NCBI GenBank assembly: GCA_031414595.1
Contig: JANNVX010000100.1
Coordinates: forward strand, 1 to 62,391
DNA from: Deinococcales bacterium
Lineage (GTDB): Bacteria; Deinococcota; Deinococci; Deinococcales; JAAFIG01
Direction of reading: 5' to 3'
Length of the DNA stretch: 62,391 nucleotides
Both the position numbers and the translations under genes were made by a program. Positions 1 through 62,391 of the stretch are shown here, piece by piece. Within the stretch, counting starts at the first letter, position 1. The number at the start of each line of letters is the position of its first letter. A model generated the notes under the pieces. The model was not told the DNA's origin and made no database searches. It saw only the letters and a program-made list of their open reading frames with translations.

Positions 1-531
1 GTGGTACTTGGTTGGGTTTTTTAAGAAATCCACGACTTCGGATAATTCTTCTTTGGCTTCATCGCAACCCGCGACTTCTTTGAAGGTGGTGCTTGGTTTT
101 TCGACTTGTTTAGCTCGAGACTTGCCAAAGCTCATTGCTCCACCCGCTCCATCACCCGCTCCGCTGCCAGAACGCGAACGAATTAGCAAGACCAGCATCA
201 CAATTAAAATGGCGACACCCGCAATTTGTATGCCAATCATGATGTAGTCACCTGTTGGCACAGCCCGACTGACACTGTATTTGGTATTAAAACTAGCCCT
301 GGCAAACTCGAGGGCATCAAACAGGCTTTTATCCATCATCAGTTGGACACGGTATTCGTCGGGTTGGGTACTGCGTTTACGGTCTGTCGTAACCAGAGCG
401 CTGCCATTGGGCGAAAGCACCACTTTTGCCACACCACCCGAGCGCAATTCATTTAAGAAACTGCTGACCGAAGGCGCAGCCAACGACCAGCCTAAACTCA
501 GCCAAAGGGTGATAATCAAGCGAAGTAACAT
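1..531 (-). CDS. ftsH: ATP-dependent zinc metalloprotease FtsH, N-terminal part (runs off window start)
   Basis: Not in the ORF track; my translation from ATG 531 gives a TM segment then [10 protein letters not shown]...[30 protein letters not shown], the conserved FtsH pre-AAA signature. Confidence 0.92.
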
Positions 532-602
532 GGTTAAAGGGTAGCACCTTCGGTGCGTTTTTTGGTGGGAATTTTGACACCGAATTTTTGTTAGACTGAT
601 TT

Positions 603-1796
603 ATGAAACAACAATCTATCAAACAACACTTTCCAGCCCTGAGTTCTGGCTTTTCATTCCTCGATAACGCGGCTGGCGCACAAGTCCCACGGGCTTGTAT
701 TACTGGAATCACCAATTTTCTCGAGTCTGCCAGTTGCAACATTGGAATGCCTTATGTGGGTTCGCAGTTATCCACATCTGTCCGTGACCAAACCAGAATC
801 GAAACCGCCGAATTTTTTGGCTGCAAACCCGAGGAAGTGGTTTTGGGTCCTAGTGCCACTGCCCTGACTTTTAGGTTGTCCACCGCCTTCTCGAGACTGT
901 TTAAGGCTGGCGACGAAATTATTATTTCCGAACTAGAACACGAATGCAATGCCAGTCCGTGGCGCGAACTTGAACAGATTGGTTGTGTGATTAAAATCTG
1001 GCGAGCCACTTGGTCAGAAGGTAAACTTGAACTCTCTGAACTCGAGAAATTACTGTCGTCAAAAACCCGTCTGCTCGCCATCACTGGCGCAGCCAACAGC
1101 CTTGGCAATCGCCCAGATGTGACTGGCGCAACCGCTCTGGCACACGGCGTTGGCGCTTGGGTGGTCAATGACTTGGTGCATGACAGTCCGCATCATCTGC
1201 CAGATGTTCAAAAAACCGATGTGGATTTTGCGTTTTTCTCGGCGTATAAGGTTTTTGGCACACACCTTGGGTTTATGTACATTCGCCAGAACTTACTTAG
1301 GGACTTACCCGCCCAAAAGCTGCATTTTATCCCCGACGACAGTTTACTCAAATTTGAACCTGGCACAAACAATTATGAAGGCATGGCGGGATGGCTCGGT
1401 ACGCTATCGTATCTGCGTCAAGAACTTGGCGATGGACTGAACGGACGGGCGGGCTTAACTCGAGCCTACCAAACCATAGAGAACATCGAAAAACCACTGC
1501 TCGAGTACACACTAGAACGCATTAAAAACTTACCCAATGCCACTTTGTACGGCGAACCGAGCAGCCAAAATCGTGTTGGTACATTCTGCTTTAACCTCGG
1601 CAGTGCCAACCCAATGGAAGTGGTCAAGTACCTTGGAGGACAAGGTGTGGGCGTGGCTGGAGGGCATTACTACGCGATGCTCCCCATGACTGCACTGGGT
1701 TTGTACCCAAGCGGAGCAATCCGAACCAGCCTTGCCCATTACACCAGCCAAGCCGATTTAGACAAGCTCTTTGATGCCCTCGAGAAAAAGGATTAA
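603..1796 (+). CDS. Cysteine desulfurase-like class V PLP aminotransferase
   Basis: FLDNAAGAQVP, EHECNASPW, FSAYKVFGTH (PLP lysine), FEPGTNNYEG, IRTSLAHYT. Confidence 0.85.
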   Translation: MKQQSIKQHFPALSSGFSFLDNAAGAQVPRACITGITNFLESASCNIGMPYVGSQLSTSVRDQTRIETAEFFGCKPEEVVLGPSATALTFRLSTAFSRLFKAGDEIIISELEHECNASPWRELEQIGCVIKIWRATWSEGKLELSELEKLLSSKTRLLAITGAANSLGNRPDVTGATALAHGVGAWVVNDLVHDSPHHLPDVQKTDVDFAFFSAYKVFGTHLGFMYIRQNLLRDLPAQKLHFIPDDSLLKFEPGTNNYEGMAGWLGTLSYLRQELGDGLNGRAGLTRAYQTIENIEKPLLEYTLERIKNLPNATLYGEPSSQNRVGTFCFNLGSANPMEVVKYLGGQGVGVAGGHYYAMLPMTALGLYPSGAIRTSLAHYTSQADLDKLFDALEKKD

Positions 1797-1845
1797 CCAC
1801 AAAACGGGCTGCTCGAGAGATTGCCGATTCTTGGCTTACGGCTAC

Positions 1846-2526
1846 TCAGGTCTCGAGTTTGCCGTCTCGGATTCGCACAATCTGATTGGCTCTGGCTGCT
1901 ACTTCCATATCGTGGGTAATTAAAATCAGGGTGCGGTTCTGACTGCCTTCCATTGGTTCGGTCAAAAGCTCTAAGATGCCCGTGCCTGTTGCGGTGTCTA
2001 AGTTGCCTGTCGGTTCATCGGCAAATAGCACACTGGGGTTGGTGGCAAGCGCCCGAGCTATCGCAACCCGTTGTTGTTCGCCACCAGATAATTGATTGGG
2101 GTAGTGGGTGCTGCGTTTACTCAGCCCGACCCGTTTAAGAATTTCGCTCGAGATACCACTTCGTTTGGCTTTGGGTAGACCCGCCAAGGTCAGAGGCAGT
2201 TCAATGTTTTCTTGGGCGTTTAAGATACTGACCAGATTATAATTCTGGAAAATAAATCCAAAGTGCGCCAGACGGTACGAAGCCAAACTGGTTTCTGGCA
2301 TGGTTGTAATATCGTTGCCTTGGTGCGAGACCATACCACTTGAAGGACGGTCAAAACCTGCCAGCAAGTTCAGCAAAGTGCTTTTGCCACTGCCCGAAGG
2401 TCCAACAATCGCCGTGATTTTACCCGCCTCAAAACCAAGTGATAAATGGTTCAGTGCGGTCACACTACTTTCGCCACTCGGATAGATTTTAGAAATGTCT
2501 TTTGCCTCGAGAATAATTTTTGTCAT
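1846..2526 (-). CDS. ABC transporter ATP-binding protein, LolD/MacB-like
   Basis: [39 protein letters not shown]. Confidence 0.92.
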
Positions 2527-2527
2527 C

Positions 2528-2567
2528 TTAATTCCTACCTAGTGATTGAGTTAATTCCTACCTAGTG
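2528..2567. repeat. 17-bp direct repeat TTAATTCCTACCTAGTG (2528-2544, 2551-2567)
   Basis: Exact duplication of the permease 3' end; the copy supplies an AGGTAGGA RBS-like sequence before the ATPase start. Confidence 0.85.
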
Positions 2568-3726
2568 CTTCGGTAATCACCAAACGGCTGGCGGTTCTGG
2601 CGGGTAATAAACCCGATAGCAAACCAAGTACCAATGCCACCCCAATGGCTAAGCCAGTTAAACGAAAAGTCACTTGGGCGATTTCGACACTGATTAAATC
2701 ACGCACCGCAAAATTAACCGCCAGAGTACCAAGCCAACCGACCACCACCCCGCCCAGACCACCCAAAAGGGCTAAAAGCAGACTCTCGAGAACAACCAAC
2801 TGAAAAACAAAACTGGGCTTTGCACCAATCGCTCGTATTACCCCGAATTCTTTGGTGCGCTCATAAACGCCCATCATCACAGTGTTGGCAACCGCTAAAC
2901 CGCCAACAATTAAGGCGATTAAACTGATTCCAAAGCGAAAAGCATCACCTATGGCTATCGCACGGTCAAGAACTTGAACCACATCGCCTTGGGTTTGGGC
3001 TTTGAGTTCATCCTTGAAGCGCCGATTGATTTCATCGGCGGTTTTACGGGCATCGGCTGGGTCATTGAGTTTTAAGGCAATCAGTGTAGCTTTACCTGTG
3101 ACAGCTAAGGTTTTGGTCAGGCTGGCAAAAGGTAAAAATACGGCGCTGTCAGTAAAACCACCAGATTTTTCGACAATCCCAATCACTTTATAACGGTCTG
3201 TCCGACTTAAACGCAGTTCATCGCCAAGTGCCAGACTAGCAGTTTTGGCAGCTTGAAAACCAACCACTGCCACTTTATCATTGGCTTGACTGGCACTAAT
3301 CCATTGTCCAGAACCGAGTTTCATATTCGGGTAAACATCGGTCAGGGTGACTTTATCAAATGGGTAGGCGGCAATCACATAACCACTGCCTGAAAATCCA
3401 CCTCGAGCAGTCAGCAACAACGGAATCACTTGTTTAATCCCTAACTCAGATTTAAGTGCCTCAAAACGCGATAGCACTTCTAAAGGCACATCTGGAATTG
3501 GGCTACCAAAAATACTTGAGGTTTCAGAACCCGCTAAACCAATTTGAATATCCGGTCCAACATTACCAAGTTCATTGCCCAAGGCTTTGCGAAACCCCTC
3601 ACCGAGCGATAAAAAAACCACCATGCTGGCAACTGCCACAACAATCCCAAGAATGGTTAAAATAGTTCTGACTGGGCGGCGCATTAAGCCACGCAGGGCT
3701 AAATTGGATAAATCCGCAAAATTCAT
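2551..3726 (-). CDS. ABC transporter permease, MacB/FtsX family
   Basis: [47 protein letters not shown]. Confidence 0.9.
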
Positions 3727-3757
3727 AAGTCGAGTTTAACGGGTTTTAACGGGCGGA

Positions 3758-3830
3758 ACGTCTCGAGGTGTACGGCACATCACGTCTCGAGGTGTACGGC
3801 ACATCACATCTCGAGGTGTCACGTCTCGAG
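3758..3830. repeat. Tandem 24-bp repeat ACGTCTCGAGGTGTACGGCACATC (two full and two partial copies)
   Basis: Read directly; four CTCGAG sites in 73 bp of a divergent intergenic region. Confidence 0.9.
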
Positions 3831-3850
3831 CGCATGGTTTAGAATACGGT

Positions 3851-4657
3851 ATGGCTTTTGCTGACCAACTTTCTGAAATCACCAAAGATTTTTCTGGCAC
3901 AATTGGGCTTTATGCCGTTCGGTTCGAGGATGGTTTTAGCCTTTCAGACAATGCCAAAGAAACATTTCCTGCCGCCAGTGTCATAAAACTGCATTTATTA
4001 ATTGCTGCTTTGCAACGGGTACAAAATGGGCAACTCGAGTTAGACACCCGAATTGCGCTGCCCGAAAGCGAAATTGTGCTTGGCAGTGGTTTACTACAAA
4101 AACTCGAGGCTGGAGCGCTTTTAAGCCTAAAAGATTACTTAACCCTGATGATTATTGTCTCCGATAACACGGCTACAAATATGGTGATTGATTTTCTGGG
4201 TGGGATTGAGTCTATCAACGCCCAACTCGAGACTTGGGATTTAGGCAGTACCCGTGTGGTCGGTAAACTGATGTTGCCCCTAGAACGCAAAAATGAAGCA
4301 CAGAAAGCTGGCAAAATGCACCAAATTGTTCCACTCGAGGTGGTTGGGATTTTACAAGCCTTGTATGGTGGCAGATTGCTCAATCCAGAATTAACAGCTT
4401 TAGCCCTCGAGATTCTTAAAAAACAGGAGTACACCGAAATGATCGGGCGCTTACTGCCAACTGGCACAATCACCGCCACCAAGAGTGGGCAGATTATGGG
4501 GGTGCGAAACGATGTTGGGTTTGTCTTTTCATCTCGAGTCTATGCTGTGGCAATTTGCAGCAAAGACTGCACCGATTTGCGTTATCACATTGACAACGAA
4601 GCGATTTGGACAATTGCCAAAGTCTCGAAACTGATTTTTGAGGTTATGCAAAAATAA
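3851..4657 (+). CDS. Serine hydrolase, class A beta-lactamase-like fold
   Basis: SVIK, SDN and KSG motifs; no signal peptide. Confidence 0.85.
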   Translation: MAFADQLSEITKDFSGTIGLYAVRFEDGFSLSDNAKETFPAASVIKLHLLIAALQRVQNGQLELDTRIALPESEIVLGSGLLQKLEAGALLSLKDYLTLMIIVSDNTATNMVIDFLGGIESINAQLETWDLGSTRVVGKLMLPLERKNEAQKAGKMHQIVPLEVVGILQALYGGRLLNPELTALALEILKKQEYTEMIGRLLPTGTITATKSGQIMGVRNDVGFVFSSRVYAVAICSKDCTDLRYHIDNEAIWTIAKVSKLIFEVMQK

Positions 4658-4697
4658 ATGAGCCAAGAAAAGTCTTGGCTCACGAGTGTACTTGAAT

Positions 4698-5975
4698 TTA
4701 CTTGGTTGGAATAATTTCGGGTTTGACTTTAATCTCGAGTTCTTTGCCACCACGTACAATGGTCAGGCTCACTTCATCGCCAGCTTTGGAATTATAGACC
4801 ACCCGTTGTAAATCCTCGGCGTTGGTGACATCGCGTCCGTTAATTTTGGTAATCACGTCACCATTGACCGCAATGTTATCCACTTCTCGAGTCGAAGCCC
4901 GCAATCCGGCTTTGGCGGCTGGGCTGCCCGCCTGTACACCACTGAGCATGATGCCACTGGCGGGTAAGTTAAATTGTTTGCGAAAATCTGGTGAAATTTG
5001 GGTCATGTCATAACTAAAGGTAGATACACCTAATCGCGGGCGGCTGGTGGCAATGGTATCTCGATCAATCACTTTGCCAGCTTTTAGGTCTGGCAATAAA
5101 CTGTTTACTAAGTTAATTGGCACAGCAAAGGCAATACCTGCAAATTGTCCAGTGCCAGTCATGCTTGTGCCGGGTGAAAGAATCGCGGTGTTAATACCAA
5201 TCACTTCGCCCGAAGAGTTTAGAAGCGGTCCTCCAGAGTTTCCGGGGTTGACAGCAGCATCGGTTTGAATCACGTTGTTGGCTAAATTCCCACTGCCTTC
5301 AAAGCTGCGTCCAGTGGCGGACACAATTCCTTCAGAAACACTAAACTCGAGTCCGAACGGGTTGCCCATGGCAATGGCTTTCTGCCCAACTTTTAAGGTG
5401 TCCGAATTAGCAAACGGGATTGGCGTGAATTTCTTATTTGGGGCTTCGATTTGAATTAAAGCCACATCGTAAATGGGGCTGCGCCCGACAACTTTAGCTG
5501 AGTATTTTTTAGGGTCGTTGTGAAACTGGACTTGTAATTCGCCTACCGTGTCTGAGTCGAGTGTCACCACATGGTTGTTGGTTAGCATCAAACCAGATTC
5601 ATCAATTACAAAGCCACTGCCCGAACCGCCACCACTCGAGCCACCACGTTGTTGCTGCATACACATCATGTACTGGGTAAAGTCAGATGGGTCGCATTGA
5701 CCAGACACATTTTGTTTTGCCCTGACTTGGATATAGCCAATGCTCTGGTCAAAGCTCTGAACCACTTCGATGGTGTTGCGTTCATTCTCGAGTTTGGCGC
5801 GTCCGTAATCAAAACCTGTACTCGAAGGTGGAGTGTTTATCAGGGTTCGTGTACTTGTATTTGAACCAGAGTTTAACTGCGCGTTACCGATAGGCGGTGA
5901 GAAACTTTGGTACAACACACCAGCCGCCACCAGTGCGGTGAAAACCATTGTTAAAGCCAGAAAGCGATTTTTCAT
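4698..5975 (-). CDS. HtrA/DegP-family serine protease with PDZ domain
   Basis: GSGFVID, TNNHVV, DVALI, QTDAAVNPGNSGGPL, C-terminal PDZ, N-terminal membrane anchor. Confidence 0.95.
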   Translation of the reverse strand: MKNRFLALTMVFTALVAAGVLYQSFSPPIGNAQLNSGSNTSTRTLINTPPSSTGFDYGRAKLENERNTIEVVQSFDQSIGYIQVRAKQNVSGQCDPSDFTQYMMCMQQQRGGSSGGGSGSGFVIDESGLMLTNNHVVTLDSDTVGELQVQFHNDPKKYSAKVVGRSPIYDVALIQIEAPNKKFTPIPFANSDTLKVGQKAIAMGNPFGLEFSVSEGIVSATGRSFEGSGNLANNVIQTDAAVNPGNSGGPLLNSSGEVIGINTAILSPGTSMTGTGQFAGIAFAVPINLVNSLLPDLKAGKVIDRDTIATSRPRLGVSTFSYDMTQISPDFRKQFNLPASGIMLSGVQAGSPAAKAGLRASTREVDNIAVNGDVITKINGRDVTNAEDLQRVVYNSKAGDEVSLTIVRGGKELEIKVKPEIIPTK

Positions 5976-6221
5976 TTTTTCCTCCGTGTATTCTCGAGTA
6001 GCTTTGTGAGCGCTTGACCCTCGAGTATCTGCTTGAGCGCAGTCTCTTCATTGCTAAATCATTGCACACTGTAGGATTTTTTACAGTAGTCAGCACACCA
6101 TCTGCTGTTTCATATGCTCACAAAATACTATGAAGCCACCATGAAGCCTAGAAGAACCTTAAGTAAACACCCCTTAATAGGCGTGAAACCCGAGATTCAT
6201 TGTGTGCTAAATTAGAGACGC

Positions 6222-14860: not shown

Positions 14861-15501
14861 ACGATATTGGTGTTTTAATCGTGGATGACCACTTGATTCT
14901 GCGTAGTGGTCTGCGCTTACTGCTCGAGTCCGAAACGGGTATCGAAATCATTGCCGATGCTGCCAGTGCCGAAGATGGGCTGCGTTTAGCCTCCGAACTG
15001 CAACCCGATGTGATTTTAATGGACATTCAATTGCCCAATATGAACGGTATCGAAGCCACCAGACGAATAAAAAGCACCAACCCCAGAATTCAAATTTTAA
15101 TGCTGACGATGTTCCAAGACGACGACAGTGTTTTTGCGGCGATTCGGGCTGGCGCTCAAGGCTACTTATTAAAAGGTGCAAGCCAAGAAGAAATTGCCCA
15201 AGCCATACGCGGTGTGGCACGCGGCGAGGCTGTATTTGGGGCTGGGGTAGCCTCTCGGGTCTTAACCTATTTTGCCGCCAACCGACCAATGGCTGCGCCC
15301 TTGTTTCCAGAACTGACGGCTCGAGAACGCGAAATCCTTGAGTTGATCGCCCAGCACGCTACAAACTCCACGATTGCGACAAGGCTTGAGTTAAGCCCCA
15401 AAACAGTTCGCAACTATGTCTCGAATATCATCTCGAAGTTACAAGTTGCGAGCCGTTCTGAAGCCATCTGGGTGGCAAAAAATGCAGGTATTGGTTTATA
15501 A
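14857..15501 (+). CDS. NarL/LuxR-family response regulator
   Basis: IVDDH, DVILMDI receiver; LTAREREIL...[12 protein letters not shown]. Confidence 0.95.
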
Positions 15502-16461
15502 GGCTAGGGTTTTTGCCAGTTCACGCAACTCGAGCGAAACATCTTTGCGTTTTGTCCATGTATCTTTGAGCGGCACATGAACAATGCTGCCAGCCACCAC
15601 CCCAATCATCACGTCGTTTTTACCAGCAATCAGGGCTTCGACTGCCCCGTACCCCATCTGTGAAGCCAAAATTCGGTCACGGGCGCTGGGGCTGCCGCCG
15701 CGTTGCACATGACCAAGAATACTGACCCTTGCGTCTAAGCCAGTCGCCGCCGAAATTGCTTCCATGACTTTAATGCCGCCGCCTTCGTAGCCTTCGGCAA
15801 CCACAATAATGCTTGAGGTTTTACCTTTGGCGGCACTGGCACGAACAATTTCCACGACTTGCTCGAGCGTTTCGGGGCGTTCTGGAATCAGAACATCTTC
15901 TGCGCCGCCAGCAATGCCAACATCCAAAGCAATAAAACCAGCGTGTCTGCCCATGACTTCAATGATGAAAAGCCGTTCGTGGCTGGCGGCGGTGTCGCGG
16001 ATTCGGTCGATGGCTTGCAAGGCAGTGTTGACGGCTGTGTCGTAGCCAATCGTGTAATCTGTGCCGTACAAGTCGTTGTCTATTGTGCCGGGTACGCCAA
16101 TGACTGGAAAACCCTGTTCTTCGGACAGAAAGTGCGCCCCGTGGAAACTACCATCGCCGCCAATCACCACCAAGCCTTCGATGCCCGCGTTTCGTAAGTG
16201 CTGGGCAGCTTGGGCGCGTCCTTCGGCGGTTATAAATGGTTTGCAACGGGCAGTTAATAAAATTGTGCCACCGCGTTGAATCGTGTTGGCGACATCTCGA
16301 GCGCCGAGTTTGGTGAATTCGCCTTCCATCATGCCGGCATAACCGCGTTTGACTCCCATCACTTCGATACCATGTGCAGTTGCGGTGCGTACCACAGCCC
16401 GAACCGCAGCATTCATGCCGGGTGCGTCGCCTCCACTGGTTAAAACTCCGATTCGTTTCAT
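15496..16461 (-). CDS. pfkA: ATP-dependent 6-phosphofructokinase
   Basis: [41 protein letters not shown]. Confidence 0.97.
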
Positions 16462-16563
16462 ATTCTCTCCACTAAAACTCGAGGCGCATTGTGACACGTT
16501 GTAGGGTAGCAAATGCAAACGCTCGTTCAGGTTTGAGGCTAAAAGATGATTTTCAAGGTTGCG

Positions 16564-18015
16564 TCAGGGATTGCGGTTAAGTTTTTCTTGGACTTGAGCG
16601 AGCGCATCTCGAGTGAATTGGATATTTTCTGGTATATCTCCGCCTTGAATTCTTATGTCAATAGATTTTACAAATGTTTTCTCTGCTTCCTCGAGACGAC
16701 CAGAATCATGTAATACACGACCAAGTATGTGTAATAGGATTCCACGACTCGTCAATGTATCTCCGCCTTGTTCCGCTAATTCCAAACTGGTTCTAAGTGC
16801 TTTTTCCGCTTCCTCGAGACGACCAGAATCATGCAGCACACGACCCAGATAGTCCATTGTGATTCCACGACTTGTTAATGTATCTCCGCCTCGTTCGGCT
16901 AATTCCAAACTGGTTCTAAATGCTTTTTCTGCTTCCTCGAGACGACCAGAATCATGCAGCACACGACCTAGATAGTCCATTGTGATTCCACGACTTGTTA
17001 ATGAAGCATCATCTTTTTCCTGCCATTCTAAACAGACTCTAAGTGCTTTTTCTGCTTCCTCGAGACGACCAGAATGATGTAGTACCTGACCAAGTGCGTG
17101 CATTGTGATTCCACGACTTGTTAATGAATCCTCACCTTGTTCTGCCCATTCCAAACTGGTTCTAAGTGCTTTTTCTGCTTCTTTGAGACGACCCTGAAGC
17201 ATCAAGGTGATACCAATACCAGTTAAAGAACCTACTTTTTCTAGAACTAAAGCGCCAATCATTTCTTCAATTGCCAGCACTTCTCGAGCTACTGCTTCGG
17301 CTTCGACATATCGTTGTCGGTGCATTAAACCACCATAGGCACGTATTAACATCCGAATTAGCATCTTTTCTTCGCCTTTGACCCCGCGCAATTGTGCAGC
17401 CGTCTCGAGGGCAATGTCTGGGTCAAGTAACGCATCGCTCGAATTGTCTTCTTGTAATACTTGCCTACCCATTTCTAGGGCATTTTCTCGCTGCTCGAGG
17501 CGCAAATCACTTAGCATCACTTCTGGTTTTATGTTCACCAGCATTGAACGGATAGACCACCAATCCTTTGCTGACATTTGCAGCACTTCGTTTGTCCAGA
17601 TGGCTGCCACAATAAAAATTGGGATGTTGTAGCGGCGCATCAGTTCGTCCCGCCGTTCATTGACTCGAGCTACAGCGTACTGCCATGCGCTGCGCCATGC
17701 TTGGTGCTGTGGGTCAAACTTGGTGCTAACACTGGCAAGCCAAATTGCTCCTGCGCCTTCTAGGTTTGCGCCCTCGAGTAACCACGGGGCAAATTGAGCT
17801 TGGAGTTCTTCGGGTGTACCAATTTCGATTTGTTCTAAGCGTTGCCCTTTGGTTTTTAAGAACTGCTCGAGAAGCGAGGCACAGACGCGGGCTGCTCCTG
17901 CATCTGGCACTAATATAATGTTGCTCGAGAAACCTGTGCTTAACTCGAGAAAGTCCAGTAAGTACGACCACTCCTCGGCGGCTTGTTTGCCAAATCGGTG
18001 TTCGAGTTCATTCAT
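16564..18015 (-). CDS. TPR-repeat protein with N-terminal degenerate NTPase-like domain
   Basis: 41-aa TPR units SRGITM..LGRVLHDSGRLEEAEKA.R..LE; N-terminus has VNERRDEL...DWWSIR; start overlaps the ATPase stop. Confidence 0.8.
   Translation of the reverse strand: MNELEHRFGKQAAEEWSYLLDFLELSTGFSSNIILVPDAGAARVCASLLEQFLKTKGQRLEQIEIGTPEELQAQFAPWLLEGANLEGAGAIWLASVSTKFDPQHQAWRSAWQYAVARVNERRDELMRRYNIPIFIVAAIWTNEVLQMSAKDWWSIRSMLVNIKPEVMLSDLRLEQRENALEMGRQVLQEDNSSDALLDPDIALETAAQLRGVKGEEKMLIRMLIRAYGGLMHRQRYVEAEAVAREVLAIEEMIGALVLEKVGSLTGIGITLMLQGRLKEAEKALRTSLEWAEQGEDSLTSRGITMHALGQVLHHSGRLEEAEKALRVCLEWQEKDDASLTSRGITMDYLGRVLHDSGRLEEAEKAFRTSLELAERGGDTLTSRGITMDYLGRVLHDSGRLEEAEKALRTSLELAEQGGDTLTSRGILLHILGRVLHDSGRLEEAEKTFVKSIDIRIQGGDIPENIQFTRDALAQVQEKLNRNP
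16660..17200. repeat. 123-bp tandem coding repeats in the TPR gene
   Basis: GCTTCCTCGAGACGACCAGAAT at 16685, 16808, 16931 and 17054; variant copy at 17177. Confidence 0.9.
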
Positions 18016-19339
18016 TTTCTTTTTGGAGTTCTGCAACGATTCGTTTGGCTTCAGGGAGAATCATTTGGTGTGCATCGTACCATTCGTCGCCGTTTTTGAA
18101 GAACAAAATCATGTGTGAATCAATCAGTAATTTAATACGGTCAATTTCGGCGCTTTCAGGGTTTACGGTGCGGGTTCGGGCAATTTCTTCAATCACAATG
18201 GCTTTACTTTGACTCAAGGGTAAGTAATTATTACGAATTTGACGGGTGGCACTCTCGAGAATGGTTGTTTTGACTGGGAAATTGCGTTGACTACGAACAC
18301 TGGCTTCGTAGACCATGCGAAACAAATCGCGGATGTCTCCACTACTGGCACGAATTAAAATTTCGGCGGCTGCATCTGGGTCTGCGCCGAAGAAACGAGT
18401 CCAGGCGTTTGGTTCAACGGCTTCAAAACGCTTTTTGAGCAGCTTAGTAAGCCTTGCAATGCCTTCTTTTTTCTCGGTACGTTCTGGATTGTTACGCCAG
18501 AGTCGTACTCCTGAAAGCATGGTGGTGTCACCCTCGAGTGGTCTTAAAAATTTAAGCCACGGTGGAATGGTGTAAATCATGTGGACATAAGGTAATGCCA
18601 GTTTTGCTCGGTGATTCTGAAAAATAAATTCAATGCTTTTTTGGACATTTAATTGCGATTGTTCATCTGAGCCTTCGATTTTTTCTAGGTTATCGAAAAT
18701 AAAAATAATTTCTTTGTCACCACGTTCGTCTCGAATTGTTGCGACAACTTGTTCAAAATACCTGCGAATTTCGGAATTGAGTTGTTCTACATGGGTTTCA
18801 AAGGCTTTACGAAAACGGGTGCGGAATGTTTCGTTGCCTTTTAGTTCTAAGTTGACACTGGCAAAGTCCATACTCAAACCAAGTTCGGTTATTTTTACAT
18901 CGGTTCGTTTTAGGTAATCGGTTAGCCTATCCCACAAGTCCTTGAGTTTACTTTCGGGATTTTTGACAAAGCCTCCAAAAGCAACAGCAATGGTGTAGAG
19001 CAAATCAGTAATATTGATTGGTGCATTTTTGGAGATAAATTGGTTTGCATCGGCGTAAAGGGCAATGTAACCTTCTGCCTCGAGTTTACCCACCAATTGA
19101 TTTAAGAGTGTACTTTTGCCTGAGCCACGAAAGCCAGAAAAAAACTGAATGCTTTCTCTGGTGATTTGATTGGCTCGGATTCGCTCGAGCATGGATTCGG
19201 TTGGTTCGATATACCCATCTTCGTCATCAGGGTACGGTTCGTAAAGCGGCACGTACAATTTACTATGCGCCTCGAGTGGTTTCTCGGGTTTTAATTGCAC
19301 AGTCAGGTGTTGCAAAAATTCCAAATCGGTGTACGGCAT
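18008..19339 (-). CDS. P-loop ATPase (AAA+/STAND/KAP-like)
   Basis: Walker A GFRGSGKST, Walker B IFIFDNLEK, GDIRDL; C-terminal FKNGDEWYDAH. Confidence 0.8.
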   Translation of the reverse strand: MPYTDLEFLQHLTVQLKPEKPLEAHSKLYVPLYEPYPDDEDGYIEPTESMLERIRANQITRESIQFFSGFRGSGKSTLLNQLVGKLEAEGYIALYADANQFISKNAPINITDLLYTIAVAFGGFVKNPESKLKDLWDRLTDYLKRTDVKITELGLSMDFASVNLELKGNETFRTRFRKAFETHVEQLNSEIRRYFEQVVATIRDERGDKEIIFIFDNLEKIEGSDEQSQLNVQKSIEFIFQNHRAKLALPYVHMIYTIPPWLKFLRPLEGDTTMLSGVRLWRNNPERTEKKEGIARLTKLLKKRFEAVEPNAWTRFFGADPDAAAEILIRASSGDIRDLFRMVYEASVRSQRNFPVKTTILESATRQIRNNYLPLSQSKAIVIEEIARTRTVNPESAEIDRIKLLIDSHMILFFKNGDEWYDAHQMILPEAKRIVAELQKENE

Positions 19340-19364: not shown

Positions 19365-20192
19365 TCATGACCCAAGTTCAGATACGACTTTCAGGGCTAA
19401 GTCATAGGCAGCATTGCGCTCGAGTCCAAGTTGTTGCAATTTGGCTCGGATTTCTTTGACCCGCAGTCCAGCCTTGGCATACTCAAGGGCTTTTGAACCA
19501 TAATCGAGGCTAGGCTCGAGCGAAACCATGTTTGGCGCTAAGACCAGGACAATTTCGCCTTTGACTTCGCCGCTAAAGTGTGTGGCAGTAGCCTCGAGTG
19601 TACCGCGATAAATTTCTTCGTGCAGTTTAGAAAGTTCTCGAGCCACGGCGCAAGCTCGAGCCGAACCGCACAAGGCACTTAACTCGAGCAGCGTGGCGTG
19701 TAAGCGGTGTGGGTTTTCATATAAGACACTGGTGATGTTTGAAACACTGATTTCCTCGAGTCGCTCAGTCCGCTCACGCCCAGAGCGCGGCAAGAACCCA
19801 TGAAAAGTAAAACGTCCACTGGGTAAGCCCGACAAGGTAATGGCGGGAATCAGGGCATTTGCACCAGGTAGAGCCTCAATGCGAATGCCAAGCTCGAGCG
19901 CAATGCTGACCAGTTCCGCCCCGGGGTCAGAGAGTCCGGGGCTGCCAGCGTCGGACACAAATGCCACACGGGGGTATTTCTCGAGGACAGACTTGCCGCG
20001 CTCTAACATCGTGTGGGCATCTAAACGCTCGAGCGGTTTATGAATTCCAAAGTGTTGTAATAATCTGCCAGAGTGACGGGTGTCCTCACAGGCGATACAA
20101 TCAACGTTTTTAAGCGTCTCGAGGGCGCGTAGTGTGATGTCGCCAAGATTGCCGATGGGGGTGGGGACAAGATAGACGATGCGTTCAGTCAT
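19365..20192 (-). CDS. rsmI: 16S rRNA C1402 2'-O-methyltransferase
   Basis: VPTPIGNLGDITLRA, CEDTR, SDAGSPGLSDPG, ARELSKLHEE. Confidence 0.95.
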   Translation of the reverse strand: MTERIVYLVPTPIGNLGDITLRALETLKNVDCIACEDTRHSGRLLQHFGIHKPLERLDAHTMLERGKSVLEKYPRVAFVSDAGSPGLSDPGAELVSIALELGIRIEALPGANALIPAITLSGLPSGRFTFHGFLPRSGRERTERLEEISVSNITSVLYENPHRLHATLLELSALCGSARACAVARELSKLHEEIYRGTLEATATHFSGEVKGEIVLVLAPNMVSLEPSLDYGSKALEYAKAGLRVKEIRAKLQQLGLERNAAYDLALKVVSELGS

Positions 20193-34920: not shown

Positions 34921-34930
34921 AATTTACGAA

Positions 34931-35421: not shown

Positions 35422-35486
35422 ACTCGAGGCAATAAAGTGTTGACTTCGTATACAATTGTTATCATGAAGATTTTGCGAGTAAAACC

Positions 35487-36584
35487 ATGATTGCTCAAAT
35501 TAGTTTACCCACTGCAACTAAGCAACGCTTAGGGCTACCAAAGCAGCCTTTACTCAATCAAATCACTTGTGGCGATAGTGCCGTACTTCTAAAAAATCTT
35601 AGCAGCGACAGTATTGATTTGGTCATTACCTCACCTCCTTATTTTCAGCAGCGTGATTATGGCAGTGGTGGTATTGGCAACGAAAAGAGCTCAGAAGATT
35701 ATATTGCTGCCCTACTCGAGATTTTTAAGGAATGCGTGCGCGTTCTTAAGCCTACTGGTAGCATTATTTTTAACTTAGGCGACAAATACGAAGATGGAAG
35801 CCTGATGATGCTCCCATACCGTTTTGCCATTGCAGCCACCAACCAAACAAAGGTGAGTTTAGTCAATCAAATCACTTGGTTAAAAACCAATCCAACACCA
35901 CGGCAATTTAAGCGCCGTTTGGTCAGCAGTACAGAACCATTTTTTCATTTTGTAAAATCAAACACTTATCAGTATTTTATTGATGATTACTTAGCGCCAC
36001 TGGAAATGACCAAGCCAACCAGTGCTGGGGGAAATGTTGGACAAAAATACTTTGGCTTAATTGAGCAATCCAATTTGACCGATGCACAAAAAACAATGGC
36101 GCGTGATGCACTCGAGCAGATTATTGAAGAAGTTAAACGAGGTGAGCTTCAAGGTTTTCGGATGAAAATCCGAGGAATACACTCCGAGCCTTTTGGCGGG
36201 CAAGAAGGTGGACGAAAAATTCAACTTGATAAAAATGGGTTTACCTTGATTCGTGTTTATGGCAACCCGCTTAAAAAAGATGCGCTAATTTCGCCTGTTG
36301 AATCCATTAAGAATTGTCCACACCCTGCTATTTATCCTGTTAAAATCATTGCCGAGTTGATTAAATTACTGACTCGAGAAGGGGATATTGTGCTTGACCC
36401 GTTTCTTGGGTCGGGTTCAACTGCGGTGGCAGCGGTGCAGAATAAACGCCAGTACATCGGTTTTGAAATTAGTCAAGAATACTGTGATTTTGCCAGACAG
36501 CGTTTAGAAAATTTATCAACATCAAAACCCATCGCTAAGCAACAACTTGCTTTTTGGGAGAATTATGCCAGTCCATCCAAATGA
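35487..36584 (+). CDS. Beta-class amino DNA methyltransferase (probably N4-cytosine)
   Basis: ITSPPY before HPAIYP and LDPFLGSGST. Confidence 0.9.
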   Translation: MIAQISLPTATKQRLGLPKQPLLNQITCGDSAVLLKNLSSDSIDLVITSPPYFQQRDYGSGGIGNEKSSEDYIAALLEIFKECVRVLKPTGSIIFNLGDKYEDGSLMMLPYRFAIAATNQTKVSLVNQITWLKTNPTPRQFKRRLVSSTEPFFHFVKSNTYQYFIDDYLAPLEMTKPTSAGGNVGQKYFGLIEQSNLTDAQKTMARDALEQIIEEVKRGELQGFRMKIRGIHSEPFGGQEGGRKIQLDKNGFTLIRVYGNPLKKDALISPVESIKNCPHPAIYPVKIIAELIKLLTREGDIVLDPFLGSGSTAVAAVQNKRQYIGFEISQEYCDFARQRLENLSTSKPIAKQQLAFWENYASPSK

Positions 36585-37701: not shown

Positions 37702-38549
37702 ATCAAATCACCTCTCAAACTCCAGAACTCGAGCCTAAGCCCACGGCACGTCTCGAGTTTAACTTGCTGTTTGGTTTTGCCACCCTTGGCTTGCTGCTTT
37801 TTGCGGCGCTGCTGGGTTTAATTTGGACTCCGCACAACCCAACATTTCAGAATTTTGCGGTACAACTGCAAAGCCCAAGCCTGACTTATCCACTTGGCAC
37901 AGATAACTTTGGACGCGACACTTTATCCAGATTGCTGCGTGGCGCAAGTACCAGTGTTCTGGTGGGTTTAATCAGTGTTGGCATCGGCTCGAGCCTAGGC
38001 TTGTTGCTGGGCATGATTTCAGGCTGGCTTGGCGGGTTAATAGATGACATTATCATGCGAATTTTGGACGCACTTTCGGCGTTTCCAACGATTTTACTGG
38101 CACTTTTAATCGCTGTTATTCTCCGCCCGAACATTTGGAGTGCCATGCTTGCCGTGGGAATCTCGAGTATCCCAACCTTTGCACGACTGACTCGAGCCGG
38201 TGTCATTGCCACCAAAAACCTAGATTTTATTGATAGCGCCAGAGCTTTAGGCGCTCGAGATGCCCGTTTGATGTTCAGGCATGTCTTGCCCAATATCGCT
38301 TCGGCATTGATTGTTCAAGCCACTTTTGCCTTTGGCATTGCAATTCTAGCCGAAGCTGCGCTTTCTTACCTTGGGCTTGGGACGCAACCCCCCGCCCCAA
38401 GTTGGGGTGTGATGCTGCGCGATGCCCAAACCTTTATTTACCAGAGTGCTTGGGCAACGATTTTTCCCGGTTTAACGATAGCCATAACCGTACTAGGACT
38501 TAATTTATTAGGTGATGGACTGCGTGACCGACTTGACCCTCGGCGTTAA
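37698..38549 (+). CDS. Peptide/nickel ABC transporter permease, DppC-like
   Basis: PLGTDNFGRD, FIDSARALGA, LSYLGLG..PSWG, NLLGDGLRD. Confidence 0.92.
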   Translation: MNQITSQTPELEPKPTARLEFNLLFGFATLGLLLFAALLGLIWTPHNPTFQNFAVQLQSPSLTYPLGTDNFGRDTLSRLLRGASTSVLVGLISVGIGSSLGLLLGMISGWLGGLIDDIIMRILDALSAFPTILLALLIAVILRPNIWSAMLAVGISSIPTFARLTRAGVIATKNLDFIDSARALGARDARLMFRHVLPNIASALIVQATFAFGIAILAEAALSYLGLGTQPPAPSWGVMLRDAQTFIYQSAWATIFPGLTIAITVLGLNLLGDGLRDRLDPRR

Positions 38550-49331: not shown

Positions 49332-50441
49332 TTAACGGATTTCCCTAGACCGAATTAGCCAGACACCGGCAATTAAAAACCCAGCATTGGCAAGCCAAGG
49401 GGCAATAAAGGCGGGCAGCACGCCCATTTGCCCTAGGGTGCGCCCAAGAAACAAAGCCGCGTAAAAGCCAATCGCAATCAGCACCGCGTAACCAAAAGCG
49501 GTACTCGAGTTTCGAGCGCCCCTTGAAGCCACCGCCACACCAAAAAGTAAAATAATAAAACTAGCAAAAGGCAAAGCGGTTTTTAAGCCCAGTTGCGCTG
49601 CAACTTCGCGTTTTTGTATCCCTTCAGCTTTTTGATGGTCAATATACAAATCCGAAATACTGCGTGGGTCTTCAAAACCACTGCCGTCATTTTCGGCAAC
49701 CAACTGGTCGGTTGTTTTTTTAATTGGCACACTGGTTTTGGCATTTACATTCAGCGAACCGCGAAAAATCTCGAGAAAAGCATTCTGCGTCCAAGTGGTG
49801 GTAATTTCATCGGGTGGTGGAAAAAAATCGTGGTCTACCGTGTACTTACGAAAACCAACCATCTCGAGCCGATTCTTGGTAATTTGGGCGGTGCGAGCTA
49901 ACGTAATGCTTTGCTTATTGCCGACCCATTCTTCAAGGCGGACATTCTCGAGCCTGTTACCACTGACCCCCGTAAAAAACAGGGTTTTACCGTCTAAGTC
50001 AAGGCGTTTACCCGCAATTCGGGTTAAGGCATTGCCAGAAACACCATCCCACCAAGTCACACTGACGAGTTGATTGGCTCTTGGGGCAATAAATTCTGAC
50101 ACCACATAACCCAAACCTGTCACCAACGCCCCAAAAAGCAGCACCGGACGCGCCACTTGCAGTAAACTGATTCCACCAGACTGCGCCGCCAGAAGCTCGT
50201 TTTCTCGAGCCAGCCGCCCAAAAACCATCAGGGCAGTAAAGACCGAAGCGATTGGGAAGGCTTGCAGCGCAAAATTGGGAATTTGGTATAGCATCCAAGG
50301 CAGCAACGACTTGGCGGGTAATGCCGATAAGAATGGTTGTGCCAGAATTCGCCAGAGCAGAAAAATACCAATGTACAAAAAAGTACCGATTAAAAAGTTG
50401 GGGATGGTTTCACGGGCTACCATACGCTCGAGTCGCGTCAT
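49332..50441 (-). CDS. LptF/LptG-family permease
   Basis: FGRLARENELLAAQSGGIS, ALPFASF, LPAFIAPWLAN. Confidence 0.88.
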   Translation of the reverse strand: MTRLERMVARETIPNFLIGTFLYIGIFLLWRILAQPFLSALPAKSLLPWMLYQIPNFALQAFPIASVFTALMVFGRLARENELLAAQSGGISLLQVARPVLLFGALVTGLGYVVSEFIAPRANQLVSVTWWDGVSGNALTRIAGKRLDLDGKTLFFTGVSGNRLENVRLEEWVGNKQSITLARTAQITKNRLEMVGFRKYTVDHDFFPPPDEITTTWTQNAFLEIFRGSLNVNAKTSVPIKKTTDQLVAENDGSGFEDPRSISDLYIDHQKAEGIQKREVAAQLGLKTALPFASFIILLFGVAVASRGARNSSTAFGYAVLIAIGFYAALFLGRTLGQMGVLPAFIAPWLANAGFLIAGVWLIRSREIR

Positions 50442-59358: not shown

Positions 59359-60120
59359 TTACAACTCAAACTCCTCGCCAAGATAATGCTGACGCACTTC
59401 TGGATTTCGGGCAAATTCTTCGGGCGTTCCCTTAAAAACCACTTTACCATCCCACATTAAATACACGCGGTCGGTAATCGCCACAGTTTCACGCACTGCA
59501 TGGTCGGTAATAAAGACACCCAAACCACGTTTTTCTCGGAGTTCACGAATCAAACGCTGAATTTCTCGGACACTTTTGGGGTCTACGCCCGTAAAAGGCT
59601 CGTCGAGCAGAATAAAATCTGGATTGGTGGTTAAACTTCTGGCAATCTCGAGTCGGCGGCGCTCGCCACCCGATAAGGTATACGCCATTTTATCGGCTAA
59701 GTGCGACAACTGAAATTCCTCGAGCAGCGAATTTGCTTTATCCATCCGTTCTGAAGGGGTTAATTTTTGGTACTCGAGAATGGCGAGCAGATTATCTCGA
59801 GCCGTCATTTTGCGAAAGGCACTCGGTTCTTGCGGCAAGTAGCCTAAACCCAACTGAGCGCGGCTGTGCATTGGTAAACGGGTAATATCGGCTTGACTTA
59901 AGTGAATTGTGCCAGAATTGGGTTTAACAAAGCCAACCATCATATAAAAAGTTGTGGTTTTGCCTGCCCCGTTTGGTCCAAACAAAGCCACGATTTCGCC
60001 TCGAGCCAATTCGAGGTCTACCCCACCGACCACTTCTCGTTGTCCAAAACGCTTATGCAAACCTCGAGCCACCAAAAAAGGCGCAGCCGAGGCACTAGAA
60101 GAAGGAGAAGCAAAAGTCAC
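59359..60120 (-). CDS. lptB: LptB-like ABC ATPase
   Basis: [51 protein letters not shown]. Confidence 0.92.
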
Positions 60121-60362: not shown

Positions 60363-60489
60363 AATCCTATTATGCTCCTTTTTGCAACAATTTGCTCTAG
60401 TGGGTCATTCTATTTACGTCACACATCTTTAGAAATACTCGAGAATTGTATTGAGCGTCTAATGGCTAGTAGCCGAATGCCCCATTCGC

Positions 60490-61755
60490 TTATTTTAAGC
60501 CACTTCGGGCAACTCCAGCAATAAATTGCTTTTGTGCCACCAAAAACCCAACAATAATTGGGGTAATCACCAGAATACTGGCTGCCATCAGTTGCCCATA
60601 ATTGCTGCCCGCCTCACCAATAAAGCTTTGCAAGCCAACTTGGAGGGTACGCATTTCGGTTTTGCTGGTGACGATGATGGGCCAAAGCAGCGCATTCCAA
60701 GACCCTAGAAAACTAAAAATCCCAAAGGTCACAATCCCCGGTACTGCCAATGGCAACGCCACTTTGGTCAGTTGTGTACCGTATCCCGCCCCATCAATTC
60801 GGGCGGCTTCAAACAATTCGTTCGGCAAACTTAGGAAAAATTGGCGCAACAAAAAAATCCCAAAGACACTGGCAATCCATGGCACAACAATGCCCGCGTA
60901 AGAATCGAGCCACCCGAGCTTAAAGACGGTCACGAAATTTGGTACAAGCAGCATCTCGCCGGGAATCACCAAGCTCGAGAGAATCGCCGCAAAAACGACA
61001 TTACTGCCCCAAAATGGAATTTTAGCAAAAGCAAAAGCTGCCAGCGTGACCACCACCATACCCAGCAGAACTTGGGCAACTGAATTGATAACGCTATTTA
61101 AGAAATACTGACCGAACGGTGCGACCCGCAGTGCATCACGGTAATTTTCTAGGATATAACCAAGCAGTCCGGGTGCAACATTGCTCCAATCGTACACCGC
61201 CCCCGTGTCATTCCTCGAATTGCGGTCTGGCGGCAGGGTACTCGAGACCAAGGTCATGCCATCAGGCAAACTGATTTTAAGTGGGACTTTTAACTCGAGA
61301 GCATCTGAAGTGTTTTCGATTTGCACTGACCAAAGATTGGGCTTTAGACTGGAGACACTGACTTTTCGTGGGTCGGTGTTTTCGGCATTGCTCGAGCCAA
61401 ATAAAAACGAATTGGTGTTGCTGCGTGAATCCGATGGCACTTCGGCGACCAGTTGCCCATCTCCTGTTGTTTGCACCTCGAGCCGAATTTCTTTTTTAGC
61501 CGCAATCCCGCCCCAGGTGGCATCTCCGCCAAGTGAACCAAGGCTTTGAGCGGCGCTCCAATTAGCCACATGCAAACGCTGCGGAAACCAAACAGGTGTG
61601 GCTTGCAGACTTTCCTGCGGACTTTGAAAACTGGTGACAATCATCCATAAAAAAGGAAATGCCATCAGTAAACTCCCCGCAATCAGCACAAAGTACAAAC
61701 TGGCTCGAGAAAAAATAGCTTGTGGGGTTCGGCGCATTTGCCTAGGGGCAGTCAT
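60490..61755 (-). CDS. Carbohydrate ABC transporter permease (MalG-like) with extracytoplasmic insertion
   Basis: FPFLWMIVTS, LFEAARIDGAG EAA loop, WNALLWP, AQKQFIAG. Confidence 0.9.
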   Translation of the reverse strand: MTAPRQMRRTPQAIFSRASLYFVLIAGSLLMAFPFLWMIVTSFQSPQESLQATPVWFPQRLHVANWSAAQSLGSLGGDATWGGIAAKKEIRLEVQTTGDGQLVAEVPSDSRSNTNSFLFGSSNAENTDPRKVSVSSLKPNLWSVQIENTSDALELKVPLKISLPDGMTLVSSTLPPDRNSRNDTGAVYDWSNVAPGLLGYILENYRDALRVAPFGQYFLNSVINSVAQVLLGMVVVTLAAFAFAKIPFWGSNVVFAAILSSLVIPGEMLLVPNFVTVFKLGWLDSYAGIVVPWIASVFGIFLLRQFFLSLPNELFEAARIDGAGYGTQLTKVALPLAVPGIVTFGIFSFLGSWNALLWPIIVTSKTEMRTLQVGLQSFIGEAGSNYGQLMAASILVITPIIVGFLVAQKQFIAGVARSGLK

Positions 61756-61769
61756 GAATTCAGTTTACC

Positions 61770-62237
61770 TCAAGAATTCACTAATCGTTCCCAAATCAGG
61801 TAATCCAAACCGTACCAATGCTTTTTTAGGGTTGCCACGACCACATACCCAGCTTTCTCGAGCATCCGCGCACTGGCAGTATTCCCAACCCGAGAATCAC
61901 ACCAAGTTTTATGCACTCCTCGAGCCTTGGCACTGGCATGAAATGCCTCGATTAACGCCCCAGCAATGCCGCGTCCTCTTGCCGCAGGGGAGACCACACA
62001 CCAAGACAGCCACAATAAACCAGCTTCTTCTGAACTCGAGACGAGAACACCTAAAACCACGTCATTCTCGAGAAAAATCAGTACATTTTCTTTTGGTATG
62101 GTCAGTAACTTATCGGCAGTTAGACCTGCCATTTCTTCGGATTTTGCCCAGTCAGAATAAAACGGACTCTCGAGAATGGCAGCTTTTAAGAGTTCGGCAG
62201 TTGGAACGGCAAAATGCGGCGCGAGATTTTGAATCAC
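61770..62237 (-). CDS. GNAT-family N-acetyltransferase
   Basis: VSPAARGRGIAG, NTASARMLEKAGY; start uncertain. Confidence 0.85.
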   Translation of the reverse strand: MIQNLAPHFAVPTAELLKAAILESPFYSDWAKSEEMAGLTADKLLTIPKENVLIFLENDVVLGVLVSSSEEAGLLWLSWCVVSPAARGRGIAGALIEAFHASAKARGVHKTWCDSRVGNTASARMLEKAGYVVVATLKKHWYGLDYLIWERLVNS

Positions 62238-62313
62238 AAAGAAAATATAGGCTAAGGAACTGTCCAAGAATAACTTCCTGATTTCAAATAGACCAAAAAC
62301 AGACAATTGGTCA

Positions 62314-62391
62314 CAGGGCGGACACGGGGGTCCGCCCCTACCTGACGTATTTTTATGGATTTTGTAGGGACAGACCCCTGTGTCTGTCCTG
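62314..62391. repeat. Inverted pair of GTAG-type REP sequences (REPIN-like)
   Basis: GTAGGGGCGGACCCCCGTGTCCGCCCTG (minus, 62341-62314) and GTAGGGACAGACCCCTGTGTCTGTCCTG (plus, 62364-62391). Confidence 0.85.

Follow-up and report, generated by a model that had tools for sequence, protein, structure and literature searches.

The stretch of DNA analysed here, called the window throughout, is a 62,391-base contig (C100) of a Deinococcales assembly of 4.49 Mb in 120 contigs with a G+C content (GC) of 47.2% (G000), and our subject is the hexamer CTCGAG, which is spread over its whole length at 5.1 copies per kb. Dinucleotide-preserving shuffling of the window gave an expectation of 7.37 copies (standard deviation 2.58, maximum 15), and in none of 100 shuffles was the observed count reached. 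At least one CTCGAG was found in 47 of the 48 gene models of the window (range 1-22). The features through which the word was followed are:

1..62391, both strands: CTCGAG spread, 321 copies, in genes and spacers
3758-3819 (region to 3830), no strand: intergenic 24-bp tandem repeat, 2.6 copies, with a CTCGAG in each unit (3762, 3786, 3810)
15496..16518, minus strand: pfkA, source of a 15-genome codon alignment
16678..17193, minus strand: 123-bp tandem repeat, 4.2 copies, inside the open reading frame (ORF) 16564-18036
19365..20192, minus strand: rsmI, 16S rRNA cytidine-1402 2'-O-methyltransferase (TIGR00096, E 2.1e-68)

The rsmI gene is the densest of the window, with 11 sites in 828 bp (13.3 per kb). 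Each unit of the 123-bp repeat carries one site (16690, 16813, 16936 and 17059), and a fourth CTCGAG lies beside the 24-bp repeat, at 3825. The counts given in a first-pass annotation of the same sequence were reproduced: about 31 sites had been reported in bases 1-6060, and 31 are listed up to base 6,025; 11 had been reported in rsmI, and 11 were found between 19,365 and 20,192. The composition-based expectation of 0.22 per kb used there is correct at the GC of the assembly.

Genome-wide, CTCGAG occurs 23,235 times in G000 (5.18 per kb, or 5,176 per Mb), and about 3.1% of all bases fall within it. It is the most frequent hexamer of the genome, and ranks 2-7 are occupied by overlaps of CTCGAG itself. 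The observed-to-expected (O/E) ratio was 23.9 at zero order (composition), 43.5 under a first-order Markov model and 18.1 under a second-order model, so the excess, put earlier at roughly 20-fold, is real, and that figure is, if anything, low. The ratio of 1.16 obtained with the maximal-order Markov model was discarded as a test: CTCGA and TCGAG, the two pentamers within CTCGAG, are almost confined to it, which makes this model unfit; the third-order ratio of 3.8 is inflated likewise.

To place the sites in reading frames, genes were taken from a simple longest-ORF caller, with no trained gene finder (3,852 models, 88.9% of G000), and shuffled in two ways. In the CTC GAG frame, 12,212 sites were observed, versus 1,294 after shuffling of synonymous codons and 522 after shuffling of codon order. 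The corresponding numbers were 4,016, 417 and 247 for the xCT CGA Gxx frame, and 4,298, 258 and 154 for the xxC TCG AGx frame. Each of the three frames is thus enriched 9-17-fold over synonymous shuffles, which preserve every protein and the codon usage of each gene and are conservative, because CTCGAG itself inflates codon usage. Intergenic DNA contained 2,756 sites in 510 kb (5.40 per kb), and coding DNA 5.13 per kb. Since all frames are enriched and intergenic density equals coding density, we conclude that the excess is neither a Leu-Glu or codon-pair effect nor an effect of a single frame. The occurrence of sites in all three frames and between genes, as first described, was therefore borne out. 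The Markov and codon-shuffle controls that had been proposed with it left the excess standing in every frame of these ORF-based models; it neither disappeared on control for Leu-Glu and codon-pair use nor was confined to one frame.

The recognised unit is the bare hexamer. Across twelve positions on each side of CTCGAG, flank information was at most 0.046 bit per position, and extended palindromes around the word occurred at chance frequency, in coding and intergenic DNA alike. Uninformative flanks and chance-level extended palindromes mean that CTCGAG is no element of the repetitive extragenic palindromic (REP) or miniature inverted-repeat transposable element (MITE) kind, and is not usually the centre of a hairpin. 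A small mobile repeat of either kind was accordingly rejected, there being no longer unit conserved among copies. Earlier mention of sites in tandem duplications and hairpin stems can be upheld for the repeats, of which the 24-bp and 123-bp units are real examples; the stems were anecdotal. As separate observations, the 8-bp palindrome CCTCGAGG had 178 copies, the other fifteen NCTCGAGN forms 1,108-1,904 each, with about 750 expected from flank frequencies; CTCGAGCTCGAG did not occur in G000 at all; and pairs of sites 7 apart were over-frequent (101).

The excess stands against a very unusual, palindrome-poor background. Of the 64 palindromic hexamers, 34 had an O/E below 0.1 in G000, with GGGCCC absent and TGCGCA, CGATCG and GAGCTC present in 2, 3 and 6 copies, respectively; GGCC had an O/E of 0.011. 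Fully 69% of the TCGA tetramers of the genome sit inside CTCGAG.

These results bear directly on the idea that no special process is at work and that the word simply follows, as a by-product, from the frequency of Leu-Glu, from codon-pair bias or from a small mobile repeat. The CTC-GAG frame does hold 59.5% of coding sites in the G000 ORF models, and in a GC-rich outgroup (172.5 kb coding) the count in this frame is largely codon usage (539 observed, 304 in synonymous shuffles). Even there, the other two frames gave 11 and 18 sites versus 0.3 and 4.4, with GAGCTC at expectation, a mild excess that is again frame-independent. In G000, GAGCTC, which is made of the same two codons, is nearly absent, and the frame, intergenic and flank results all contradict a by-product. 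We consider this explanation refuted and assign it a negligible probability.

The population of G000 is present in freshwater-sediment samples, at a contig depth of about 12x. The relatives of G000 are metagenome bins, 57-94% complete. Contigs labelled 'MAG: Deinococcales bacterium' that encode 94-96% identical homologues of a 689-residue window protein carried 5.5-6.4 sites per kb, and all 18 of the 18 other genomes of the family, from five genera, carried 4.3-6.8 per kb. The reversed word GAGCTC was found 0-568 times per genome across the 18 relatives, and is rare in all 19 family genomes. A complete, single-contig relative from another genus (G013) had 4.8 CTCGAG per kb at 60% GC; in the same 400-kb sample there were 3 copies of GAGCTC and 1,268 of GGCC, which is thus not avoided. 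Palindrome avoidance is therefore partly lineage-specific, GGCC being avoided in G000 and common in G013, while GAGCTC is rare in both. The comparison of the two genomes indicates that neither base composition nor the other avoidances determine the set-point of CTCGAG. Separately, GC differs by 13 points within the family, between the genera of G000 (47%) and G013 (60%), at a mean protein identity of 62.5%.

Across a phylum sample of 150 further genomes, CTCGAG followed a gradient. In the largest genus (77 genomes), there were 26-1,010 copies per genome, and the word is avoided. In a 27-genome genus, it was as frequent as the control word; three genera of that family reached 1.4-3.4 per kb, with the control word depleted, and two genera of another family 1.5-2.4 per kb.

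The history of individual sites was followed in alignments that rest on 74-400 kb samples of relatives. Between G000 and a genome of the same genus, G003 (78.6% identity, 285 kb), 1,189 of 1,594 sites were unchanged (74.6%), compared to 29.7% for all hexamers, and CTCGAG was the most conserved of the hexamers with at least 60 aligned copies. Where Leu-Glu itself was conserved, CTC-GAG was retained in 705 of 839 cases (84%); outside CTCGAG, Leu CTC was retained in 40.2% and Glu GAG in 53.8% of cases, the product being 21.6%. Conserved Leu-Glu pairs not written as CTCGAG in G000 were CTCGAG in G003 in 228 of 450 cases (50.7%), and only 85 kept their own codons. Most single-step differences between the two genomes were transitions: C<>T changes numbered 111 at the first and 117 at the third position, and T<>C changes 46 at the second. 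No position of the hexamer stood out. Between G000 and the closer G001 (89.7% identity, 73.7 kb), 384 sites were common, 60 were present in G000 only and 52 in G001 only, which corresponds to a retention of 86.5% (384/444) versus a background of 59.5%. Site/non-site pairs in this comparison differed at two or more positions in 44% of cases, versus 33% for other differing hexamers.

Gains and losses were polarised by parsimony over 21.8 kb, with G003 as an outgroup to G000 and G001. On these small numbers, the two terminal branches showed 10 and 7 gains (17) and 9 and 7 losses (16), with 102 sites common to all three genomes. Rough arithmetic, with no fitted model, suggests that loss is several-fold below, and gain several-fold above, unconstrained substitution. 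Sharing extended across genera: in 205 orthologs of G000 and G013 (62.5% amino-acid and 59.9% nucleotide identity), 231 sites coincided, which is 22.7% of the 1,017 sites of G000 and 30.0% of the 770 of G013, compared to a hexamer background of 6.8% and a chance expectation of 4.1 sites. In the pfkA alignment, a Ser-Ser site (xxC TCG AGx) was shared by 7 of 8 family genomes and absent from all 7 outgroups, and several other sites fell where outgroups encode other residues. The proposal that an active process creates or keeps the sites is thus supported by their retention, by the conversions of Leu-Glu codons, by the polarised gains and losses and by cross-genus sharing. As judged from these alignments, a directional process both maintains and creates CTCGAG, with gains balancing losses.

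The process extends to proteins. Leu-Glu is the most over-represented dipeptide of G000 (O/E 2.23, versus 0.98 for Glu-Leu and 1.50 for Ser-Ser), with about 11,000 pairs in excess of the residue-frequency prediction. Of the 20,373 Leu-Glu pairs, the 12,212 CTC-GAG sites account for 60%, where codon usage predicts 5.1%. The reshaping of protein sequences claimed at the outset is therefore visible in both amino-acid pairs and codons. At 936 aligned CTC-GAG sites, G003 had another dipeptide at 97, mostly one-step neighbours (LD 17, LA 8, IE 8). In columns shared with the GC-rich outgroup, Leu-Glu and Glu-Leu numbered 1,258 and 562 in G000 and 1,025 and 622 in the outgroup, which had Leu-Glu at 259 of 795 G000 CTCGAG positions; this test for gained Leu-Glu is blurred, because the outgroup is itself Leu-Glu-rich with a mild CTCGAG excess.

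We conclude with high confidence that CTCGAG is a genuine highly iterated palindrome (HIP) of this whole uncultured Deinococcales family, held near 5 per kb by a directional force that acts at the level of DNA. The force is blind to reading frame, to coding or intergenic status and to base composition between 47% and 60% GC, and it slows the loss of sites as well as speeding their gain. Such palindromes have been described in cyanobacteria, namely HIP1 (GCGATCGC) and the alternates GGCGCC, GCsGC, rCCGGy, GGGATCCC and TCGATCGA (Elhai 2015, PMC4390886; Xu, Lawrence & Durand 2018, PMC5861425). In copy number and O/E, in frame independence and in conservation beyond background, CTCGAG has the properties of a HIP in the sense of Elhai 2015. 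The HIP1-like behaviour suggested by the first-pass annotation is supported: no reading frame is exempt, intergenic DNA is as rich in the word as genes are, the whole clade has it, and its positions are conserved. Because the hexamer is bare and palindromic, it fits reading by a symmetric protein, and we infer that a dimer recognises it.

Type II methylases classically act on 6-bp palindromes, and G000 has at least 21 DNA methylase genes. One of these is in the window:

35487..36584, plus strand: N6/N4 DNA methyltransferase (PF01555), in a low-GC restriction-modification islet

The islet (34079-37698, GC 0.39-0.46) interrupts an opp/nik ATP-binding cassette (ABC)-permease operon (33138-34082 and 37656-38546) and contains three small ORFs, the methylase and an unannotated ORF of 384 residues (36547-37701); it has the appearance of a restriction-modification unit that was inserted there. 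Its enzyme is a candidate CTCGAG methylase by location alone, with no tie to the word, and had no ortholog among the matches listed for methylase loci of 4 relatives. The palindromic form of the hexamer and the number of methylase genes are in favour of a methylation-linked drive of the kind modelled by Elhai, in which CTCGAG would be methylated family-wide by non-orthologous enzymes of the same specificity, and biased repair would restore and create sites on every replicon. Each alternate cyanobacterial HIP is reported to have had a cognate methylase (PMC4390886).

Candidates for such an enzyme in G000 are two Eco57I+TaqI_C (TaqI/PaeR7I-like) methylases, found in 3 and 2 of the 18 relatives. 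The first (C89:286-1962) has a 48%-identical relative that its source names 'Modification methylase BstVI', and BstVI is a CTCGAG enzyme. One of its three relatives is only 31% identical, and it was not found in G013. The gene lies on a 2.1-kb contig near whose end the window's 62252-62391 repeat recurs, and bins are prone to lose such contigs. None of the methylases of G000 was found family-wide. When all of them were compared with the methylase loci of five relatives, four scattered orthologs were seen among the matches listed. The five methylase candidates of G013 (one C5, two D12, one type ISP and one HsdM) had no G000 ortholog, with best matches of 23-35% identity; as a benchmark, PfkA of a genus-mate of G013 (G009) is 79% identical to that of G000. 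G013 had no PF01555 match and one PF00145 match, G010 had no PF00145 match, and D12-class enzymes showed no orthology across genera. An alpha-like methylase (C72:42131-43402) that had looked conserved was dropped, being present in only 6 of 18 relatives, 3 of those as distant paralogs, and so was its C86 paralog, with weak matches (30-34% identity) in 1 of 5 genomes from other genera. The conserved orphan XhoI/PaeR7I-like methyltransferase that had been anticipated was thus not found among the 18 relatives.

Signs of biased repair were also sought. The Vsr family (PF03852) had no match in the 19 family genomes, the transition variants TTCGAG and CTTGAG were not depleted in G000 (O/E 1.23 and 1.07), and an origin by very-short-patch repair was rejected on these grounds. 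The equal C<>T differences at positions 1 and 3 likewise speak against methylation-linked drive. Action on all replicons would, in turn, account for the motif-rich spacers described below. On balance, we rank a methylation-linked drive second among the readings and consider it rather unlikely.

A restricted target of the XhoI type was rejected, since the XhoI-family nuclease (PF04555) was absent from all 19 family genomes, in a search that was positive in an outgroup, and the word is enriched. Within the phylum sample, 4 of 151 genomes had R.XhoI. One outgroup family has the nuclease convergent with a PF01555 methylase in 3 genomes (among them locus G021:C1:68000-84000), and in a fourth genome the nuclease is broken. 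The linked methylase had no close relative in G000 (best 26% identity). In a non-enriched genus, 19 of 27 genomes have homologs of it (62-66% identical) that stand without the nuclease and look like a conserved orphan methylase. Among three moderately enriched genera (g13-g15), none of 20 genomes had such a homolog, and the methylase did not track the trait across the 150 genomes.

The spacing of sites along the chromosome was then considered. It was near exponential (mean 191, coefficient of variation 0.99), with a period of three and a shortage of gaps under about 20 bp. A function at the level of the chromosome, with an abundant nucleoid or segregation protein binding CTCGAG and an even, dense cover being favoured, would agree with positional conservation and with a density of about 5 per kb across genera and GC contents. 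It would also agree with the distribution of sites at larger scale, where all 1,620 5-kb windows had at least 4 sites and long gaps were slightly rarer than exponential (90th percentile 407 versus 440). Selection for a chromosome-level role has been argued for HIP1 by Xu et al. (PMC5861425). Set against this are the otherwise near-random spacing, the over-dispersed window counts (variance 41 versus mean 26) and an equal density in outside DNA sampled by the clustered regularly interspaced short palindromic repeat (CRISPR) arrays, which a purely chromosomal role does not predict. We therefore think a chromosomal role improbable.

The outside DNA was examined through islands and spacers. The motif-poorest windows of G000 were an O-antigen/polysaccharide cluster and a defence island (with a GTPase-associated system, SIR2 and a 3,647-residue protein), the genes of which had 0.9-2.5 sites per kb, still above chance; these islands are likely imported. 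Three CRISPR arrays were found in the assembly:

C11:14153-16128, G000: CRISPR array
C82:70769-71719, G000: CRISPR array
C101:60-1435, G000: CRISPR array

Their 35-nt repeats are of two variants that have a 20-nt half in common and differ in the other half, and each variant contains one CTCGAG, at different offsets. The 59 spacers (2,178 nt) contained 9 CTCGAG (4.8 per kb), where composition predicts 0.43 (Poisson P 1e-9) and the density of the host 9.8; GGCC was absent versus 7.0 expected, and GATC was found 2 times versus 7.8 expected. This word content indicates that the foreign DNA met by G000 carries the word signature of its host. The spacers had no full match elsewhere in the G000 assembly, three spacer cores had no match in a viral-contig collection, and the repeat was absent from the 18 other family genomes searched. 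Viral contigs with CTCGAG clusters were set aside: the best 30 of at least 120 loci were all phages of 51-71% GC, in many of them GAGCTC was also common, and the clusters are uninformative on phages of this family.

Spacers with host-like CTCGAG density and host-like GGCC avoidance, together with motif-poor islands that are likely imported, are what might be expected if the word were a self-marker, that is, if a nuclease or defence system spared CTCGAG-rich DNA, as Chi protects DNA from RecBCD, so that host and successful invaders alike were selected for it. The palindrome avoidance of G000 points to extreme restriction pressure on the lineage, which is in keeping with such selection. No sparing system that recognises a palindromic hexamer is known to us, the distribution of AddAB-like proteins does not follow the trait, and the motif-poor islands persist. 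The self-marker is speculative, and we give it little credence.

We tentatively place first, at rather less than even confidence, a role of CTCGAG in DNA exchange or recombination, as an uptake word, a Chi-like recombination-favouring word or both. CTCGAG-bearing alleles would be preferentially taken up or recombined within a competence-capable lineage, and would spread by molecular drive, perhaps reinforced by selection; a fixed cognate methyltransferase would be unnecessary. This reading was ranked first because no fixed methylase was found, because competence genes are present, and because current work on HIP1 points the same way. Thermus and Deinococcus are naturally competent, and both ComEC (PF03772) and DprA (PF02481) were over the cut-off in 5 of 5 family genomes examined. 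For HIP1, the same role is reported or proposed in two sources (bioRxiv 10.1101/2024.09.10.611283; PMC13756078).

Several points weigh against a role in exchange. ComEC and DprA are near-universal, and their presence discriminates little. Known uptake sequences are 9-12 bp long and non-palindromic, and a hexamer affords only about 20-fold discrimination. The motif-poorest islands, at the site densities given above, entered the genome anyway. AddAB-like proteins (PDDEXK_1) were found in 12 of 18 family genomes and in 10 of 12 others; they show no correlation with the trait, and an AddAB/Chi mechanism was dropped. The conservation of sites and their excess gain are predicted just as well by selection or biased repair as by an uptake drive. 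Should the spacers derive from lytic phages, uptake cannot explain their host-like density, and a cell-wide repair drive or a self-marker does so better; in that case, the exchange and methylation-linked readings swap rank. Finally, the effect of HIP1 on transformation was methylation-dependent (bioRxiv 10.1101/2024.09.10.611283), while no conserved methylase was found here. A further reading, in which a family-conserved protein other than a methyltransferase imposes CTCGAG on all replicons, phages and plasmids included, through recombination, uptake or repair, is less likely than not but worth stating: if true, it would give an iterated palindrome with no cognate methylase, and hence a sequence-specific genome drive or 'self' word of a new type.

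The remainder of the window is described briefly. An ORF at 3851-4657 is class A beta-lactamase-like (NF033103, 121 bits, under the 200-bit cut-off) and has 6 CTCGAG sites. Lipid A and lipopolysaccharide-export genes lie within 28190-30158, 49332-50441 and 59359-60120, with lpxD and lptB over the cut-off, and lpxC-like and lptF/G-like genes with matches below it. Scans of the window against Rfam and for tRNAs gave no matches. The last bases of the window (62252-62391, about 140) have copies of 92-100% identity in more than 40 other contigs, mostly at contig ends, and the first 141 bases are repeated at three contig ends; these terminal repeats are multi-copy elements at which the assembly is interrupted.

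For three decades HIP1 has gone unexplained, and it has been regarded as peculiar to cyanobacteria and linked to two orphan methylases. A literature search, which did not cover supplementary tables, gave no report of CTCGAG hyper-abundance, and the HIP literature found was cyanobacterial only. The present word offers a tractable case, being a plain hexamer with a set-point that survives a 13-point shift in GC, a signature in invaders and no conserved methylase found. The strength of the trait varies among roughly 170 sequenced Deinococcota, some genera of which probably have cultured members, and the responsible factor could be sought by phylogenetic correlation. CTCGAG density also flags imported DNA in these genomes, and is a strong signal for binning and for assigning their plasmids and phages to hosts; provided that the sites are unmodified, XhoI would digest this DNA to pieces of about 190 bp.

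CTCGAG can be compared with several known systems. The XhoI/PaeR7I/BstVI restriction-modification systems have the same word as their target, but such targets are normally avoided, while CTCGAG is enriched here. In E. coli, an excess of CCWGG is produced by Dcm together with Vsr very-short-patch repair; the principle is alike, in that biased repair makes the target of a methylase more frequent, but that excess is small, not 24-fold, and neither Vsr nor depleted T-variants were seen in the present case. A Chi-type hotspot in the strict sense was rejected, CTCGAG being palindromic and hence without orientation, and AddAB-like proteins being patchy. The DNA uptake sequences (DUS) of Neisseria and the uptake signal sequences (USS) of Pasteurellaceae resemble CTCGAG in their genome-wide excess in all frames and in spacers, in their effect on peptides, in being sparser in imported DNA, in possible accumulation by molecular drive and in the competence genes that go with them, which are present in the family of G000. 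They differ in being asymmetric words of 9-12 bp with informative flanks, whereas CTCGAG is a bare 6-bp palindrome and about five times denser.

The closest likeness is to HIP1. Both are short GC-rich palindromes, tens of times over-represented, that are found in every frame and in intergenic DNA, occur throughout their clade and hold their positions more than background sequence does. HIP1 is also found within a Synechocystis CRISPR repeat (PMC6604393), and CTCGAG in both repeat variants of G000. Elhai found a cognate methylase with every high-frequency HIP, while no conserved one was found for CTCGAG. The two words differ in sequence and in phylum, Deinococcota rather than cyanobacteria, and CTCGAG, at its genome-wide frequency in G000, exceeds the 300-2,700 per Mb quoted for HIP1 (PMC4390886). 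CTCGAG is thus an independent and denser iterated palindrome in another phylum.

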